Below are positions 2,422 through 60,503 of a DNA stretch of 64,000 nt, piece by piece. Both the position numbers and the translations under genes were made by a program. Source of the stretch: Octopus vulgaris (Eukaryota); the NCBI GenBank assembly GCA_951406725.2, contig OX597829.1:29636001-29700000 (forward strand), written 5' to 3'. Under the pieces are notes generated by a model. The model worked only from the letters and a program-made list of their open reading frames with translations. It searched no databases and was not told the DNA's origin. Position 1 is the stretch's first letter. Each line of letters starts with the position of its first letter.

Positions 2422-2647
2422 ATGAATGCGACCGGTGGTGAGAAGGCTAAAAAAACTGTCGGACTCATTGAGTCCGATGCTTTGGGGGATATCTCGGTGA
2501 AAGAAAATATAAAACCGGCCTCCGAATTATCGGTCAGCGAGAACCGCCATCAATTTGAACGTTTCTGTTGTGAAGTTGTGCCCCGACCCGATACCAAACA
2601 TGGAGTAACAGTTCAAGAAATGACCGTACCTACCGTAGACACAGAAA
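2422..2647 (+). CDS. Coding exon 1 of a GDXG/HSL-family alpha/beta hydrolase (carboxylesterase/lipase, Abhydrolase_3)
   Basis: ATG at 2422 opens MNATGG...QEMTVPTVDTE. The donor A|GTGAGT at 2647/2648 is phase 1 and joins exon 2 to give ...VPTVDTE-I-GIPITIYNP, the strand region that precedes HGGG in HSL-family esterases. The context is CpG-rich. Confidence 0.8.
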
Positions 2648-4092: not shown

Positions 4093-4161
4093 AAAATAGT
4101 GTACATTTAAACACAAGAGAAAACTGCTTATTGAAGGCAGTTTTCTCTTGTACACTATTTT
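4093..4161. repeat. Imperfect fold-back hairpin between (TA)n tracts
   Basis: ACAAGAGAAAACTGC / GCAGTTTTCTCTTGT form a perfect 15-bp stem; AAAATAGTGTACA / TGTACACTATTTT form an outer stem. Confidence 0.7.
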
Positions 4162-9514: not shown

Positions 9515-9520
9515 CATACA

Positions 9521-9644
9521 CCTGAGTAAGCACAAATGTGAAACAAGGTAGGCAAAAATAGTACTCAAATACTGAAGGTAGAGAAATATGCTTTATCATT
9601 AAAACTGCATCTTTTGCGATGTTTTTGCAGCTTTAATGATAAAG
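9521..9644. mobile_element. Shortened relative of the fold-back element
   Basis: The leader CCTGAGTAAGCACAAATGTGAAACAAGG...GTACTCAAATAC...ATATGCTTTAT matches 9673-9750. Short inverted repeat CTTTATCATTAAAACTGCA / TGCAGCTTTAATGATAAAG. Flanked by (TA)n. Confidence 0.65.
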
Positions 9645-9671: not shown

Positions 9672-9898
9672 ACCGGAGTAAACACATAAATGCGAAACAA
9701 GGTGGAAAAAAGAGTACTCAAATACCAGTGGTAGAGTAATATGCTTTATTTTAAGCAGCAGAAAATTCAACAAAATCTGTTACTCTGAGTTTCTCGTCGT
9801 TCATCAGACAGTTTTTGCTAGCAAAAACTGTCTGATGAACGGCAACGAGAAACTCAGAGTAACAGATTTTGTTGAATTTTCTGCTGCTTAAAATAAAG
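9672..9898. mobile_element. Fold-back non-autonomous element (Penelope pLTR-like) with hammerhead-like cores, copy 1
   Basis: Loopless palindrome at 9744-9898 centred on GCT|AGC (arms 76 and 79 nt, one 3-nt indel), plus a ~72-nt unique extension. Flanked by (TA)n. Second copy at 32136-32364. Confidence 0.8.
9823..9870 (+). ncRNA. Minimal type I hammerhead ribozyme-like motif
   Basis: AAAAACUGU-CUGAUGA-A-CG-GCAA-CG-A-GAAA-CUC-A-GAG-UA-ACAGAUUUU. Conserved core present, stem I pairs, stem III is palindromic (ACUCAGAGU), GUA cleavage triplet at 9859-9861. The 10.1-11.1 pair is non-canonical. Confidence 0.6.
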
Positions 9899-27173: not shown

Positions 27174-30100
27174 CTAGGTTGTGTACTTGGTAATTCCCAG
27201 GGGTAAAGATGTTCTATTGAAACACCTTATTACTGTCATATAAAAATGGAATTTTGTTATAACTGCCACAAAAGGTGTATTTTCCTTCAGAAAAGTACAA
27301 AAGACTGGAGGCTGGCGATATAGGTTTTCGTAGGTTGGCAAAAGAGGTTGTCATAGGGAGAGGCATCTTTGTTCCAAAATTTCATTCTTGCAGGGCTTTG
27401 TGATACACAATGTTTTTGGTTTTGCCATTGGGTGCTGCATAGATGAATAAATTTTCCTGATTTCCAACTCTAGACATAGAGCTGTCCGTGAGATAAAGCA
27501 GGTTCTGTCAGATTAAGGCCTACCAATTCCAATATCTGACCCTGTGCTTTGTTGATGCTAATTGCAAAGCTGAATCTCAGTGGGAATTGTAGCCTTTTGA
27601 AATCAGTTTGTGTGTCCGAAGGAATCGGAGGAATCTTTGGAATGCAAGCATCTTCACCACTTGCTTTCCCAGTCAGTATTGTTGCCTCCAACACTGTCTG
27701 CATCAATTTTTTGATAAGTCTTGTGCCATTGCATAATTTTCGGGGATCAAGGTTTCTTAAAAGCATAACCGGGGTTCCAACCTTTTGAGGCAATTCATGC
27801 GGTGGTAGACCTGTAGTTGCAAGGCTATTAAGGAATTCAACAGGTTAGTGAACAGCATCATTGGTGTGGAACATAGTATCAATTGACTTGTATGTGTGAT
27901 GATCACCAGGCAGTTGTTCCAGAAGGTGATTGTTTACGCCATCGACTGTGACATTTTTTGGCACCAAAATTAAACATCTTCTCAACCAACAATGGTCTGT
28001 GTGTTGTGTGTTCAGATTGGGGCAAACTCTCACCAATAGTTCTTGTATATTTGACACCAAATTGCCAAAGGGTAAACTAATCTTCCCATCCTGCTCAACA
28101 ATTACAGCACCATTTCCAATATCCTTTAATTGCCTGCAGAATTTCTCCATGTGCGCATCACCATCTAACTGCATTCTCATGTTTGTTGTGAGTTTCAGCT
28201 TTCTAACCTTGGTCCAAAGGTATGAAGATTTGATGCTCACATTTACCTCATCTGCTCTCATTCTCTTTGGAATGACTGGGAGTGCTTGTCGAAAGTCACC
28301 TGCAAGGAGTACTGTTAGGCCGCCTATTAGCCTTGAGTTGCGCCTCAGATCTAGAAGTAATCTGTTAAGAACCTCAAAAGACCCCCTTATGACTCATTGT
28401 CACTTCATCCCAAATGATCAATTTGCACTTGGTGAGAATTTTTGCTTTTGTAGTGCCACGACTGATATTGCAGGTTGCTATCTCTTTTTTTTTTCTGGAA
28501 GGTCCAAAGGCAATTTGAAGCACATGTGAGCTGTGCATGCACCGTTTAACAGAGTTACAGCTATTCCACTTGACGCCATGGCAAGGGCTATCTGTTTATT
28601 TTGTTGCAGCTTTGCCAAAATAAGATTGATAATGAATGTTTTGCCAGTTCCACCTGGAGAATCAAGAAAGAAGAGATTACCAGTCTCACTAAGAGTGGAT
28701 GAAATAATGGATTTGAAGGCAGTTTTTTGATCCTCGTTCAATTTGTGTTCATTATCAGCCATAAATGCTGCCATTTCTTCAACATCATAATTGATCTCCC
28801 GTACATATTTGATGTCAAGGGTTTCAGGTGACACATCTGGCTGAGGCAGACCAAAAGCAGCAACTCCACTGCCACCCATGGATTTCTCTCCGTTGTCTAG
28901 GTCATTGAATGCTTCGTTGAAAATAGCCTCATTTTATTCGACATTTTCCAATGGGTTCTGCCTTTGAATTCAGTGTAGTATATCCTCTGACATGCTTTCT
29001 CTGTAATTCTCCCAAAGCGTTACAGGATCACTCAAGGCACATGTCAAAGCATTGTGGAGAATTGACGTAGTTGAGTTGGCATTTTGGCGAAAGAAGCCTT
29101 GTTGAGTGTTTGGTACCAATGAGCATCATCTTCAAGTAGTCCGTGTTTGGCACAGGCCACCCTAAAGGTTGGACAGAGCTCTCCATTAAACATTTGTAGA
29201 TCTTGAAAACATGTTGGGACCTCAGACAATGTGTAGGAGGAGACGTAAAAAGAAGCACTCTTGTTGATTTGGATGGACTGTGTAAACTCTCCCAATAGCA
29301 TTGCTTTGAAATATTTCTTCTGCCTCATAGGTGATAATTGGAGTTCCATTTATGTTTTACCCATTTTTTTTCCTGACCAGGTGTAATAGACAGGTACTTC
29401 AACATAAATCAGGGATCGGGAAAAATTGTTTTGCATAGGTCGAAGAAAGCTGTAAGAGTTGTTTTTGGGGGTTGTTGAAATTGCTGTTGAGCATTATCTT
29501 CCGTGAAATTGACATGCTCTCCAGTTTCAAGATGAACAGCTAGATTCACAACCATTGGATACCATCTGTGAAGTGGGAAGCCAAACATATGTCAAATCAC
29601 CTCGTTTGATGTGTATCTTCCCAGTTGTAATGTCTTATTTCATCCGTTTGCTGTTCATGTGCATTGACTCCAAAAACTGCCATATCGGACCCCTTGTTTA
29701 TGTATTTGCAGATGTATTTTATGTTCTTAACAGAATTACATGATTCGACATTGATGTGTGCCTCAAATATTTTCGATAGGAGTTTGTTGTATGGAACAAT
29801 CCATCTGTTGTCAACTTCAACCTCTTGCTGGTGTGTCTTCAATGTTGCAGTATAACTGCCATGTTCAGATTTGTGCCACCTGTAGAGTGGCTAACCGTCA
29901 TGTCCAGTTCGTGTTTCTTGAACGAATGGTCTGGGGAACCTTTTGCTGCACATATTATTCTCCATGCAAGGAAACGAAGAGTTAAAGCTTCCACGGGGCC
30001 TTCACAATGTTGTAGAGCTGAGCGTCTTGCTCTGGGTTTGGGAACTCTGCAGAAATGATGTCATCAATCAAATCTGGACATATCCTCTCCTTGCACCATA

Positions 30101-31603: not shown

Positions 31604-31899
31604 TGTTTGTTCTTTCTCGAGCCACGGCTGGCTCATAAGGGCTGGTTTCCCGGTTTCCTTGGCGTATAGGTTCCCCACCTGGATGGGACGCCAGTCCGTC
31701 GCAGGTGAGCTGCAAGATGCAGGAGGAAAGAGTGAGAGAAAGTTGTGGCGAAGGAGTCAGCAGAAGTTCGCCATTACCTTCTGCCAGAGCTGCGTGGAGC
31801 TTGGGTGTTTTCGCTCATAAACACACACATTGCCAGGTCTGAGATTCGAACCCGCGATCCCTCGACCGCGAGTCTGCTACTCAAACCACTAGGCCATAT
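31604..31899 (-). mobile_element. tRNA-derived SINE (~300 bp, young, CpG-retaining)
   Basis: Reverse complement of 34193-34499; A box TAGTGG and B box GGTTCGAATC on the minus strand. Confidence 0.9.
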
Positions 31900-32135
31900 A
31901 CATTACTGAAGCTGGTTACTGCGATAATTTTATGATGGAACATTTACAATAATACAAAGCAGTTGAGAACATTAAGCAGAGGATATGACAATGATATTGT
32001 TACTTGGCACTCGCTGATATTGTTGATAACCATTTGATAACATTATCTGCAATTGTAATAAGCAGTTACTGCTGCATCACTCCTCACCCTCTCTCTGAAT
32101 TTGTGTCTATATGTATCTGTGCGTATATATATATA

Positions 32136-32364
32136 CTTTATTTAAAGCAGCAGAAAATTCAACAAAACCTGTTACTCTGAGTTTCCCGTTGCTGTTCATC
32201 GGACAGTTTTTCTAGCAAAAACTGTCCGACGAACGGGAACATGAAACTCAGAGTAACAGGTTTTGTTGAATTTTTTGCTGCTTTAAATAAAGCATATTAC
32301 TCTACCACTGGTATTTGAGTACTCTTTTTTCCATCTTGTTTCACATTTATGTGTTTACTCTGGT
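32136..32364. mobile_element. Fold-back hammerhead-like element, copy 2 (opposite orientation)
   Basis: Palindrome at 32136-32292 centred on CT|AG, plus an extension at 32293-32364 that is the reverse complement of 9672-9743. Flanked by (TA)n. Confidence 0.8.
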
Positions 32365-32500
32365 ATATATATATAGTAGACACACACATATTTGTGTTTG
32401 CTATGTTTTACATGCTTCTTTTTCGTGTATATATATATATATATATGTGCATGTGTGCATACATACAAATATAATTATGTATATCTGTTTCTATTTTCAG

Positions 32501-32633
32501 TTGGGATTCCCATAACAATTTATAATCCCCAAATCTCACCTTTAGACGCAGCAATAATGGTTTACTTTCATGGTGGTGGATATATAATGGGGTCAAGAAG
32601 CACTGTTGAAGATACATGTAAAATATTAGCTCT
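32501..32633 (+). CDS. Coding exon 2 of the GDXG esterase (HGGG oxyanion-hole motif)
   Basis: Acceptor TTTTCAG|TT at 32500/32501. Encodes GIPITIYNPQISPLDAAIMVYFHGGGYIMGSRSTVEDTCKILAL. Donor CT|GTGAGT at 32633/32634 (phase 2). Confidence 0.95.
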
Positions 32634-33371
32634 GTGAGTGTTGCTATTCTTTTATATCTCATTCTATTGATTTTTTTTTACTTGCATCACTTTCTGATTG
32701 AATGCACCTTCTATTATTGTTTTTCTTGATGATGATGATGATAGTGTAGAGAAATAATACATTTCAGTTTAAATGCACTTTTAGCTGTAGAGTTATTAAC
32801 TGTCTCAATCATCTGTCTTTGTCCTTGTCTGTCTGTATATATGTGTATCTATGTGTATGTATATCTGTCTGTCTGGTCATGACTATCTGTGTCTGTATGA
32901 TAACATGCCTGTGTGCCTGCCTGTTTGTATGTCTCTGAGTCTGTGTCTGACCACATGTGAAAGCTCATCAGTGCTGTCCACATGTGTCCATATCTGTCCA
33001 TGTGCATTTGCATCTCTCACTGTCTGTTCATCTGATTGACCACATCTGTTTGTGTCTAAATGTTTGACTGGTTTTCATGTCCATCTGACTGACCACATCT
33101 GTCCATGCTAGTCTGTAAGACCGTGTTTTTCTTGTCAGACAGATGAGCAAGTGACTGAACATAGGTGTCTGTCTGTACTCTTTTGTCTGACTATGTCTGT
33201 TTGTGCTCATCTGTCTGAGTATTGTCAGTATCCACTCAGATGTGTTGTTACTAGATCTTACCTGAATATTAGGGTCTGGTGATCTCTTATAGAAAGCTGT
33301 GAAATCTCCCTCAGATTTCTGGACCTTGTAATAAGGTAATGGCTAAACTCCCTTAGCCATTATATAGATGT

Positions 33372-34192: not shown

Positions 34193-34499
34193 GGGAGCAT
34201 ATGACCTAGTGGTTAGAGCAGCGGACTCGCGGTCGAGGAATCGCGGTTCGAATCTCAGACCAGGTGATGTGTGTGTTTATGAGTGAAAACACCTAAGCTC
34301 CATGCGGATCCGGCAGAAGGTAATGGCGAACTTCTGCTGACTCTTTCGCCCCCAACTTTCTCTCACTCTTTCCTCCTGCATCTTGCAGTTCACCTGCGAC
34401 GGACCGGCGTCCCGTCCAGGTGGGGAACCTATACGCCAAGGAAACCGGGAAACCGGCCCTTATGAGCCAGGCATGGCTCGAGAAGGAACAAACAACAAA
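34193..34499 (+). mobile_element. tRNA-derived SINE (~307 bp) nested in an older repeat
   Basis: CCTAGTGGTTAGAGC (A box), GGTTCGAATC (B box), (AAC)n-like tail, and a 10-bp TSD CATTGCCAGT / CACTGCCAGT. Confidence 0.9.
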
Positions 34500-57538: not shown

Positions 57539-59337
57539 ACAGTTCCACCACCATCAGCCAACAAATACTCTTGTGTATGAATATTCTATATCCATGTATG
57601 TAGTGTGAGATTACACTCATGCATGCACCACATACAGGTACACACACACACACACATGCACGCGGGCAGAGAAAGTCGTACAATTTGACAATGATAAAGA
57701 CTCTCTTTAGGGTCTTTTCTTTTTTATAAATTGTCATTATCGGAAGAAAATCTATTTTATTTCTTGTTTTAAGTGCCATCACTGAATGGCTTGTTGTCTT
57801 GTTGAGAACCGAAGATTCCATTTATGTCAGCCTGCAGACATGATTAATGTTTTTCTTTTTTTTTTACTCTCTATTTATGAACAAAGAACCAAAATTGCAA
57901 AACCAACAGTCTGCCATCGCCACCATCATCATCATCATCATCATCATCATCATTGAAGGTGGCCAGCTAACGGAATCATAAGCACACCAGAAAAAATGCT
58001 TAGAGGCATTTCATTCTGACTCAGATCCTGCCAAGGTTGACTTTACCTTTCATCCTTTCGGGGTCGATAAAATAAGTATCAGTTGAACACTGGGATCAGT
58101 GTAATTCATTTATCCTTGCCCCCAAAATTGCTGGCCTTGTGCCAAAATTTGAAACCATTACTACTACTACTACTACTATGACCAGTGTTGCTATTATCAT
58201 TATTATTTAATTAAAAACAAGAGTTCTTTGTTAATTTACCATGTTATGTTTGCCTGAATCTTGAGAGTTCTACAAGCTTTACCTGTTCTGGTATTATAGG
58301 ACTCTTGTTGTTAGTTCCAATGCAGGATCTGCAAACCTATGAACAAAGGCGTACCAAGTGCATGTGTGTGCGTGCATGTGTGTACACACACATATACTCT
58401 GTTGGATGTGCAACGTAAGCGCACATGTGCTAGAGATTGCTAGTGTATTGAGAGAAAAGCTAGGCATAAGAGGAATTAGATGCAGTATACAAGAGCGAAG
58501 ATTGCACTAGTTGGTCAAAACACTGGAATCTGGTGCAGCTTGTCAGCTCTAGCCAAACTGCCCAACACATGCCAGCATAGGAAACATGTTAAATGATGTT
58601 GATCACACATACACACACACACACACAGTCATCATCATGACCATCATTTAATGCTTGATTTCCATGCTGGCATAAGTCAGATGGTTTGACAGGAGCTGGG
58701 CAAAGCAGAGGATTATGTCAGACTCCACTGTTAGTTATGGCATGATTTCTATGGCTAGATACCTTTTAGGAAAGGTATCTAGCTCTCTTTACAGTGTTTA
58801 CTGGGTGCTTTTTTTATGAGGTTACCAAATAACTTGCAAGACTCCTCAACTGAGGTAGGGAATAGTATTGAGGGAAGTGGCTTTGTGCCAGGTGATGAGA
58901 GGTTAGAGTATGACAGAGGGACAGAAATTGCTGTCTCTGGCAATGAGGGAGATACGGGGGCTACACCAGTTGGAAAATGAGAAAGAAGTAGCACAAGAGA
59001 GAGAGAGATGGTAAAGATGTACTCTTAAGTTACAAGGAGGTGTATATAAATGATGCAGTACAGAGGATTGGATCATGTGCATGGGCAGGTAAGTTCACAA
59101 GAATGTGAAAGGAATGTGGGAGATGGAGGGAGGGGAATGCAGTGAGTGGACATGTGTGGAGGGAAGGATGTGTGTGTGTATACACACACAGGCATTTTTT
59201 GTAACCCCAATTTTCAAAACCTCATGTTCACGAATTGTAAATGCAAAATGGAAAAATTGGTTACCATGGCAAAGAGTGTCACTCTTTGTCTGGCAGCACC
59301 TGTTACCTTGAGTGATCACTTGCAACTGCTTTGTGAA

Positions 59338-60390
59338 TTTGAAGAAACTTTTCCTCGCCAATTAGATTTGATTGAAGAAGGCTTTATATCATCTGAAGTA
59401 TTTAATGTGGATGAGACAGCCCTACTTTGGAAATGAATGCCTTCAAGGACTTTTATTGAGAAAGCAAATTCTTCAATACCAGGATTCAATGCTGCAAAAG
59501 ATAGGATAACGTTGCTTCTGGCAGGAAATAGTGAAGGGGACTGCAAATTCAAGGCCATGCTTATTTATCGATCTGAAAAACCCCTGTGCTTTAAAAGGAA
59601 TTGGTAAGACGAAACTTCCTGTAATCTGGAAGCATAACAAGAGAGCTTCAATGACAGAAACTAAGTTTGAAGATTGGTTTTCTAATCACTTTGTTCCTGA
59701 AGTAGAAAAATATTGTAAGGATAAGAAAATCGTTTTCAAGATTCTTTTGATTATAGATAATACCCCCCAGTCATGCTGCATTTTTAAAGCATCACCATCA
59801 AAATATTAATGTTGTTCCTTTACCTCCCAATACAATTTCTTTATTGCAGCCATTGGGTCAAGGAGCTATTTTATTGTTTAAATCTTACTGTCTCCGTTTC
59901 ACTTTTGAAAGACTCATCAAAGTGACTAATAAAGAAAATGGTCCTACGATTTCAGAATTTTGGAAGAGTTTCAACATCCTTGATGCAATAAAACTGATTA
60001 AGAAAGCATGGGATAAAATTGCTATAAAGATCAAGAAAGGAATTTGGAAAAATTTCTGCCCCAAATTAATTGACAATTTTGAAGGATTTGATCATTTTCA
60101 TGAAGTTCTTCAAAAATAAACCGACAAGATCACAAACATTGCAAAGGAATTGAACTTGGAAATTTCAACTGATGATGTTAAAGAAGCTCTTTATGCTGAC
60201 AGTGATGAAATCACAAGTGAAGAATTGCTAAAAATGGACAAATTTGAATGTGAAGAAGAAAATGAAGAATTGCCCGAAAGATGCTTCTCTGCAAAAAAGC
60301 TAAATGAAGCATTTCTTCACATTGAAAAAGCAGTTGAAATCTTTGATCAGCAAGGTGTCGATTTTGAAAGAAGCTCCACTGTTGAGCTCT
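59338..60390 (+). pseudogene. Tigger/pogo DDE transposase remnant
   Basis: VFNVDETALLWK*MPSRTFI...KDRITLLLAGN...LPVIWKHNKRA...FVPEVEKY...ILLIIDN...LPPNTISLLQPLGQG...FWKSFNILDAI, with stops and frameshifts. No TIRs seen. Confidence 0.9.
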
Positions 60391-60503
60391 ATCAAATAAC
60401 TCCATCTGTTACAAACCTCTCTCTCTCTTAGTTTGTGTATGCTTTTTTTCTTTATTTGTGAAGAGGGAACATTTTAATGTTTCTTCCATTCTTTCTCTTT
60501 TTC

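Follow-up and report, generated by a model that had tools for sequence, protein, structure and literature searches.

A palindromic insertion in an octopus hydrolase intron as a probable Penelope-like element end whose unlike arms may derive from two templates

The 229-bp insertion at positions 32136-32364 of the window (the whole 64,000-nucleotide stretch of Octopus vulgaris DNA under analysis) encodes no protein and lies inside a (TA)n run; its parts are two arms, one inverted and one direct, and a tail on one side. We identify this insertion, called copy 2 here, with high confidence as an end-piece of a Penelope-like element (PLE), and it is likely a Hydra-clade Penelope-like retrotransposon end that was 5'-truncated and dead on arrival. 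On balance we favor the full explanation in which the two arms of such an end were reverse-transcribed from two templates and joined head-to-head. The two-template step for copy 2, taken by itself, is given about an even chance, because it draws on two phased loci and on allele shares from runs with other species labels. The kind of structure is already known, and copy 2 is an ordinary PLE remnant, of use for a single clue to mechanism. An earlier, sequence-only reading of this DNA had proposed a fold-back insertion of a ribozyme-bearing retroelement, and this was borne out.

The (TA)n target of copy 2 is present on the left at 32124-32135 and on the right at 32364-32375. The inverted arm (32136-32213, minus strand) has no tail and ends in AATAAAG, while the direct arm (32214-32292, plus strand), a 5'-truncated pLTR end, runs into a 72-nt tail extension (32293-32364, plus strand) that is attached to this arm only. 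By analogy with the two start sites described in PMC11167929, the AATAAAG end is likely a second start site of reverse transcription. Each arm carries a type I hammerhead motif. That of the inverted arm (32169-32206, minus strand) has the core CCGATGA, a U4C variant; that of the direct arm (32222-32259, plus strand) has the core CCGACGA, with stem I CTGT/ACAG and stem III ACTC-A-GAGT, and its stem II is disrupted by a CpG-type change at 32241. The variant core CCGAYGA noted earlier for copy 2 is therefore correct. A short palindrome lies at the axis (32207-32221); it is a perfect 16 bp in the related copy 1 and likely sets the point of fold-back or joining, a role proposed by analogy with PMC3846280. 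The two arms fold into a single hairpin of -109.4 kcal/mol (z = -22.3), and none of 200 shuffled sequences was equally stable; the corresponding values for the hairpin of copy 1 (9744-9898) are -117.2 and z = -24.6.

Copy 1 (9672-9898, minus strand) is inverted relative to copy 2, with which it shares about 90% identity over 269 nt. It consists of a tail (9672-9743), a tail arm (9744-9819) and an inverted arm (9820-9898), and has the canonical core CTGATGA. Directly beside it, copy 3 (9520-9644, minus strand) is an older insertion of a sister subfamily, made up of the tail and a short fold-back of 54 nt (9591-9644, z = -5.3). Its axis differs, being about 50 nt closer to the 3' end than in copies 1 and 2, and the hammerhead is lost; its end is the same as theirs, ATAAAG followed by TG(TA)n. 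All three insertions in the window read (TA)n, inverted arm, direct arm, tail of about 72 nt, (TA)n, with the tail on one end only and an inverted, 5'-truncated pLTR adjoining a direct one. Insertion into (TA)n was seen in all three and again at the ends of family contigs from public runs, where 172 contigs of one DNA run (X6) and 80 of another (X8) end in TA repeats at the right flank. A hammerhead motif scan of the 64-kb window returned four sites, one in each arm of copies 1 and 2. The internal palindrome and one-sided tail, in place of terminal repeats, led us to reject a MITE or other DNA transposon.

This layout matches published PLE units. The unit of endonuclease-bearing PLEs is an inverted pLTR, a direct pLTR and an optional tail in a (TA)n target (PMC8557442, PMC3846280), and the Hydra clade has the (TA)n target, the inverted 5'-truncated copy and the one-sided tail in common with copy 2 (PMC8557442). 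Hydra-2_aMil (File S2 of PMC8557442; Craig et al. 2021) has the same type I stems I (CTGT/ACAG) and III (ACTC-N-GAGT) and the same cleavage base, and Penelope-13_HM (PMC8557442) resembles copy 2 in its inverted 5' copy and a hammerhead on each strand. Copy 2 departs from the Hydra clade as described there in its U4C core, in a 72-nt tail that is longer than the 30-40 bp reported (PMC8557442) and in having no ORF in the window. The hammerhead listed for Hydra-1_oBim (PMC8557442) has other stems and another core than copy 2, and two motif searches of the supplement of PMC8557442, in which line breaks could hide matches, returned no hits to the copy 2 motif; on these two grounds the copy 2 family appears to be an octopus member additional to Hydra-1_Obim. 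Penelope-like families, some of them recent, are known in O. vulgaris (PMC13282606, PMC8967140). In Adineta vaga, Penelope insertions have a head-to-head inverted pLTR, a palindrome at the junction and a tail on one arm, as copy 2 does (Arkhipova et al. 2013, PMC3846280). Truncated PLEs with close pairs of minimal hammerheads on opposite strands, again like copy 2, have been described by Cervera and de la Pena (2014, PMC4209133); cleavage by hammerheads of this kind is weak and depends on dimers (PMC4209133). Non-LTR retrozymes (bioRxiv 10.64898/2026.07.22.740005) are non-coding pLTR derivatives in head-to-tail tandem arrays with one hammerhead per unit, whereas the arms of copy 2 stand head-to-head and would give a hairpin RNA, and we rejected this assignment for that reason.

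A tblastn search with seven queries gave no PLE ORF in the 64-kb window; the clade and the parent element are consequently assigned provisionally, from the hammerhead and the tail. Support for the link between this hammerhead and an element protein comes from a motif scan of metagenomes, which returned ten loci with the same core, none of them of the octopus family; scans of viral and prokaryote collections returned no loci. In one metagenome locus (L001) about 105 nt separate the motif from an upstream ORF end that is 87-89% identical to proteins of around 700 aa with reverse transcriptase and GIY-YIG-type motifs. The Hydra clade is marked by RWK, DKT and CxCX5C (PMC8557442). Among the 120 listed homologues of this ORF, 46 are at least 650 aa long, and in these RWK is present in 34 of 46, a DKT-like motif in 45, CxCX5C in 45 and YRDD in all 46, as read by eye and by regular expression; a Pfam search of five Hydra-type homologues gave no reverse transcriptase or GIY-YIG match. 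A second locus (L006/L008) also combines the core with an ORF end. At positions 1283-1720 of L008 a truncated Hydra-type ORF end adjoins an inverted hammerhead arm and is followed by a direct hammerhead and a tail; its arms are 79% alike and differ in stem II. We regard L008 as a weaker, older parallel to copy 2, although it could alternatively be two insertions. The copy 2 tail is weakly similar to tails behind the related hammerheads of the metagenome loci. Invariance within the hammerhead alignment is partly built into the search pattern and was not counted as evidence. Rfam did not report the hammerheads at E values up to 1; its 48 hits, including mir-745, mir-2237 and mir-338 on copy 1, fall below gathering scores and are microsatellite or hairpin look-alikes.

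To place copy 2 within its family we used contigs of X6, X8 and X9 and raw reads of X22, four of the 24 listed public runs, over positions 32180-32720. X6 and X8 are DNA, with two species labels other than that of the window; X9 is RNA by guess and bears another label than X6 and X8, one that it shares with X22. The contigs placed (4,675 from X6, 2,211 from X8 and 197 from X9) show a multi-copy family, and summed contig depth was not taken as copy number. The result for X22 does not fit a high-copy family: eight reads among 1,934 million letters were placed, all of them tail-only (32300-32372), between microsatellites and with the same three or four differences. Depth in X6 and X8 drops steeply toward the axis, and the left-arm bin reaches 4-12% of the mirrored bins; full palindromes are therefore a minority of family copies. 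Seventeen joints were recovered in all, mostly of ambiguous orientation, and they may be secondary deletions; among the 15 shown, eight are between opposite strands, at varied places. The absence of a C>T row at or above 3% at 32227 suggests that most of the family has the U4C core. The U4C change considerably lowers hammerhead activity in vitro (PMC3088659), and the family may have expanded greatly while carrying a weakened ribozyme. Purified PLE protein, predicted to be a dimer, supports normal insertion with dead hammerheads (PMC11167929), and if the octopus family did spread with a weakened U4C hammerhead, this would favor the idea that PLEs can spread without cleavage.

Comparison of the four arms of copies 1 and 2 bears directly on how the arms were made. 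The earlier reading held that the copies differ symmetrically, in both arms, at three or more positions; the four-arm table gives exactly three such sites, 32227, 32260 and 32284 in right-arm coordinates, and all three informative sites group by locus. The common axis and AATAAAG end that it described are also present, save that copy 2 lacks one nucleotide at the axis. Within copy 1 the sole difference between arms is a 3-nt deletion, while the arms of copy 2 differ by six substitutions and a 1-nt deletion. Five of these six substitutions fall within 13 nt, over core position 7 and stem-loop II, which agrees with the clustering reported earlier for stem-loop II; the clustering is significant under uniform placement (P = 0.008) or uniform mutation (P = 0.013), but not once CpG hypermutability is weighted (P = 0.06-0.24), and we dropped it as a special signal.

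Allele shares in the family, calculated as depth-weighted contig shares in X6, X8 and X9, with the DNA shares drawn from species other than that of the window, give these differences a context. At 32260, A makes up 36, 36 and 20% of depth in X6, X8 and X9, respectively, and the site is a common family polymorphism. For the letters that copy 1 has at 32227 and 32284, the family contigs show no row at or above 3%, an absent row being weak evidence, and copy 2 seems to carry the majority letters at both sites in both arms. Since the first site is a common polymorphism and the other two show majority letters, the symmetry of copy 2 needs no re-copying of one arm from the other. The alternative against which the sequence-only reading had guarded, that old subfamilies lie behind the symmetric differences, is in part what we find.

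The mismatches between the arms of copy 2 are more telling. Three of them fall at alleles that are common in X6, X8 and X9: 32230 (20, 30 and 49%), 32237 (29, 38 and 53%) and 32242 (10, 8 and 25%). The other three, the CpG-type changes at 32235 and 32241 and the change at 32275, look private or minor. The inverted arm carries the minority stem-II set, two letters of which are common to copy 1, and the tailed arm carries the majority set. In simulation, the chance that six neutral changes would reach at least two common non-CpG alleles was 0.0008-0.007. Differences at common alleles argue against arm-from-arm copying at this locus, barring later ectopic conversion. The claim that one arm is re-copied from the other at each insertion fits copy 1, where a single template does so too, and accords poorly with copy 2. 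At 32237 the letter is C in both tail-less arms, and the tail arm of copy 1 is deleted there and uninformative; at 32230 the tail arm of copy 1 has T. Minority alleles could in part come from the inverted arms of one multi-copy, two-armed subfamily, as the left-arm depth of 4-12% is close to the 8-10% share at 32242 in the DNA runs.

We propose the following route for copy 2. The element protein would nick both strands of the TA repeat and begin reverse transcription at two sites, one start giving the tailed arm and the other the arm that ends at AATAAAG. Purified PLE protein nicks and extends both strands, with two starts of reverse transcription separated by an interval equal to the tail (PMC11167929), and although Poseidon_Ac, the element studied, is from another clade, its two tail-bracketing start sites match the layout of copy 2 (Frangieh et al. 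2024, PMC11167929). Two such sites would explain why the AATAAAG end is fixed and why the tail is on one side only. The short palindrome immediately 5' of the hammerhead would then let the cDNA ends anneal and would fix the axis, and two cDNAs, made from two pLTRs or two RNAs, would be joined head-to-head. Symmetric differences between loci would reflect the subfamily of the templates used: matching templates would give identical arms, as in copy 1, for which self-priming fits equally well, and unlike templates would give unlike arms, as in copy 2. Other junction positions, in copy 3, in the eight opposite-strand joints and in L008, were counted in favor of two templates. The data set comprises two phased full palindromes, and motif scans of the metagenome, viral and prokaryote collections added no octopus loci. 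It is conceivable, though short of probable, that inverted-pLTR palindromes of PLEs in general arise from cDNAs primed separately on two RNA templates and then joined, and not from self-priming.

How PLE inverted ends form has been explained by self-priming, proposed in 2013, and by two-strand, two-start priming, seen in vitro in 2024, and a palindrome with unlike arms separates these models. Structures of this type are read as self-priming in PMC3846280; the unlike arms of copy 2 point instead to two templates or to later conversion. Our literature search, in which subscription journals were thinly covered, turned up no study that compares the arm haplotypes of PLE palindromes. If the two-template reading is true, an octopus family thousands strong, with diagnostic stem-II alleles, would record an integration step at every two-armed locus, countable in existing assemblies. 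Copies appear to be numerous enough in octopus genomes for a count of arm pairings.

The alternative that survives best, which we nevertheless consider unlikely, is self-primed fold-back at the palindrome, with arms that start identical and with the stem-II differences of copy 2 introduced by later, short ectopic conversion. It has the published interpretation of junction palindromes behind it (PMC3846280), and it accounts for the near-identity of the copy 1 arms, where three or four letters common to both arms are not listed as common in the family, and for the grouping of the three informative sites by locus. The differing alleles of copy 2 are also confined to one 13-nt tract, as a conversion tract would be. 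Self-priming nevertheless requires a rare second event, and conversion between neighboring arms would be expected to erase differences sooner than to create them. In the opposite-strand joints and in L008, moreover, the inverted arm reaches the 5' edge of the hammerhead while the direct arm begins elsewhere, which is no simple self-copy unless sequence was later deleted.

An improbable variant replaces template choice at each insertion with a fixed, two-armed non-autonomous master that already had unlike arms and was mobilized whole, so that arms would cluster by side and the symmetric differences would be subfamily marks. The axis and end point common to copies 1 and 2, the C at 32237 in both tail-less arms and the similarity between the 32242 share and the left-arm depth share are as such a master would give. 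The low left-arm depth and its steep fall to the axis mean, on the other hand, that most copies are not full palindromes; the alleles at 32230 and 32237, at 20-38% in the DNA runs, exceed the left-arm share, and the T at 32230 lies in the tail arm of copy 1. A 77-bp hairpin RNA would also be expected to template poorly, and the origin of the unlike arms would still need explaining. We give only a slight chance to an artefact of assembly or polishing, in which reads of other family copies would have introduced the arm differences. The setting, a palindromic high-copy repeat flanked by microsatellites, invites such errors, and the best run contains a fraction of 0.88 of the sampled words and not all of them, but the right arm retains minority or private letters at 32241 (beside 32242), 32275, 32334 and 32361, which majority polishing would erase.

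Two templates remain our preferred origin for the arms of copy 2, and its structure is in itself textbook PLE debris, probably with no effect on the host gene. That gene encodes an alpha/beta-hydrolase. The coding part of an upstream exon (2422-2647, plus strand) shows 100% identity, over 75 aa, with an Octopus vulgaris hydrolase (P0121) and 84% with one of O. bimaculoides. Exon 2 (32501-32633, plus strand) has an HGGG motif and matches alpha/beta-hydrolase Pfam families below their cut-offs, and a later exon passes the Abhydrolase_3 cut-off. A contig of X9 (depth 196) covers 32501-32633 with no differences and continues into the upstream exon at about 2618-2647; it joins the two exons and so defines intron 1 as 2648-32500, which contains all three insertions. 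The splice acceptor of exon 2 is confirmed by this spliced contig. The hairpin had been placed 137 nt before the acceptor; the actual distance is 208 nt, and 137 nt is the gap between the last position of the tail (32364) and the exon.

The suggested effect on splicing is not supported, given this distance, a spliced contig without exonisation and a predicted unpaired probability for the last 40 nucleotides of the intron that barely changes (0.48 with the element, 0.44 without). Single arms fold at -3 to -4.5 kcal/mol, against -109 for the whole hairpin. In the pre-mRNA the paired arms would bury the weak U4C hammerhead, and on this modeled pairing neither cleavage nor much effect on splicing is expected. 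An inverted pair of a repeat of about 250 bp (91-94% identity; 31604-31852 and 34245-34494) flanks exon 2. A long-range duplex between its two members could enclose the exon, and the pair arguably matters more for splicing or editing than the hairpin does.

The editing that had also been suggested finds some correspondence at the level of the family, with no result at the level of the locus. In X9, A>G changes at 32246, 32250, 32255, 32256 and 32270 reach 4-24%, against at most 0.4% in the two DNA runs, in material of another species label and assumed to be RNA. They have no T>C counterpart in X9 and occur on the hammerhead-sense strand only. Tests of ADAR context were non-significant, both for a 5' G (0 of 5 sites, P = 0.22) and for arm versus tail (P = 0.14), and two sites that are not A>G, 32316 and 32324, also differ in X9. 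Family-wide A-to-I editing is possible. Co-option of the hairpin as a regulator of how the hydrolase transcript is spliced or edited is the least likely of the alternatives, and a very doubtful one: the intronic double-stranded RNA would be very stable and the five A>G changes set X9 apart from the DNA runs, but these changes are family-wide, the acceptor lies at a distance and is normally spliced, and the roughly six private changes in copy 2, one of which disrupts stem II, look like neutral decay.

Elsewhere in the window, a perfect 15-bp hairpin between two (TA)n runs at 4113-4151 is unrelated to the PLE family by blastn. Intron 1 also holds broken PIF1-type helicase ORFs at 27470-29890 (minus strand; Pfam PIF1, E = 2e-22 for 27848-28393), which we take to be a likely Helitron relic, and a broken DDE_1 transposase is present at 59146-60431 (plus strand; E = 2e-13 for 59757-60116).
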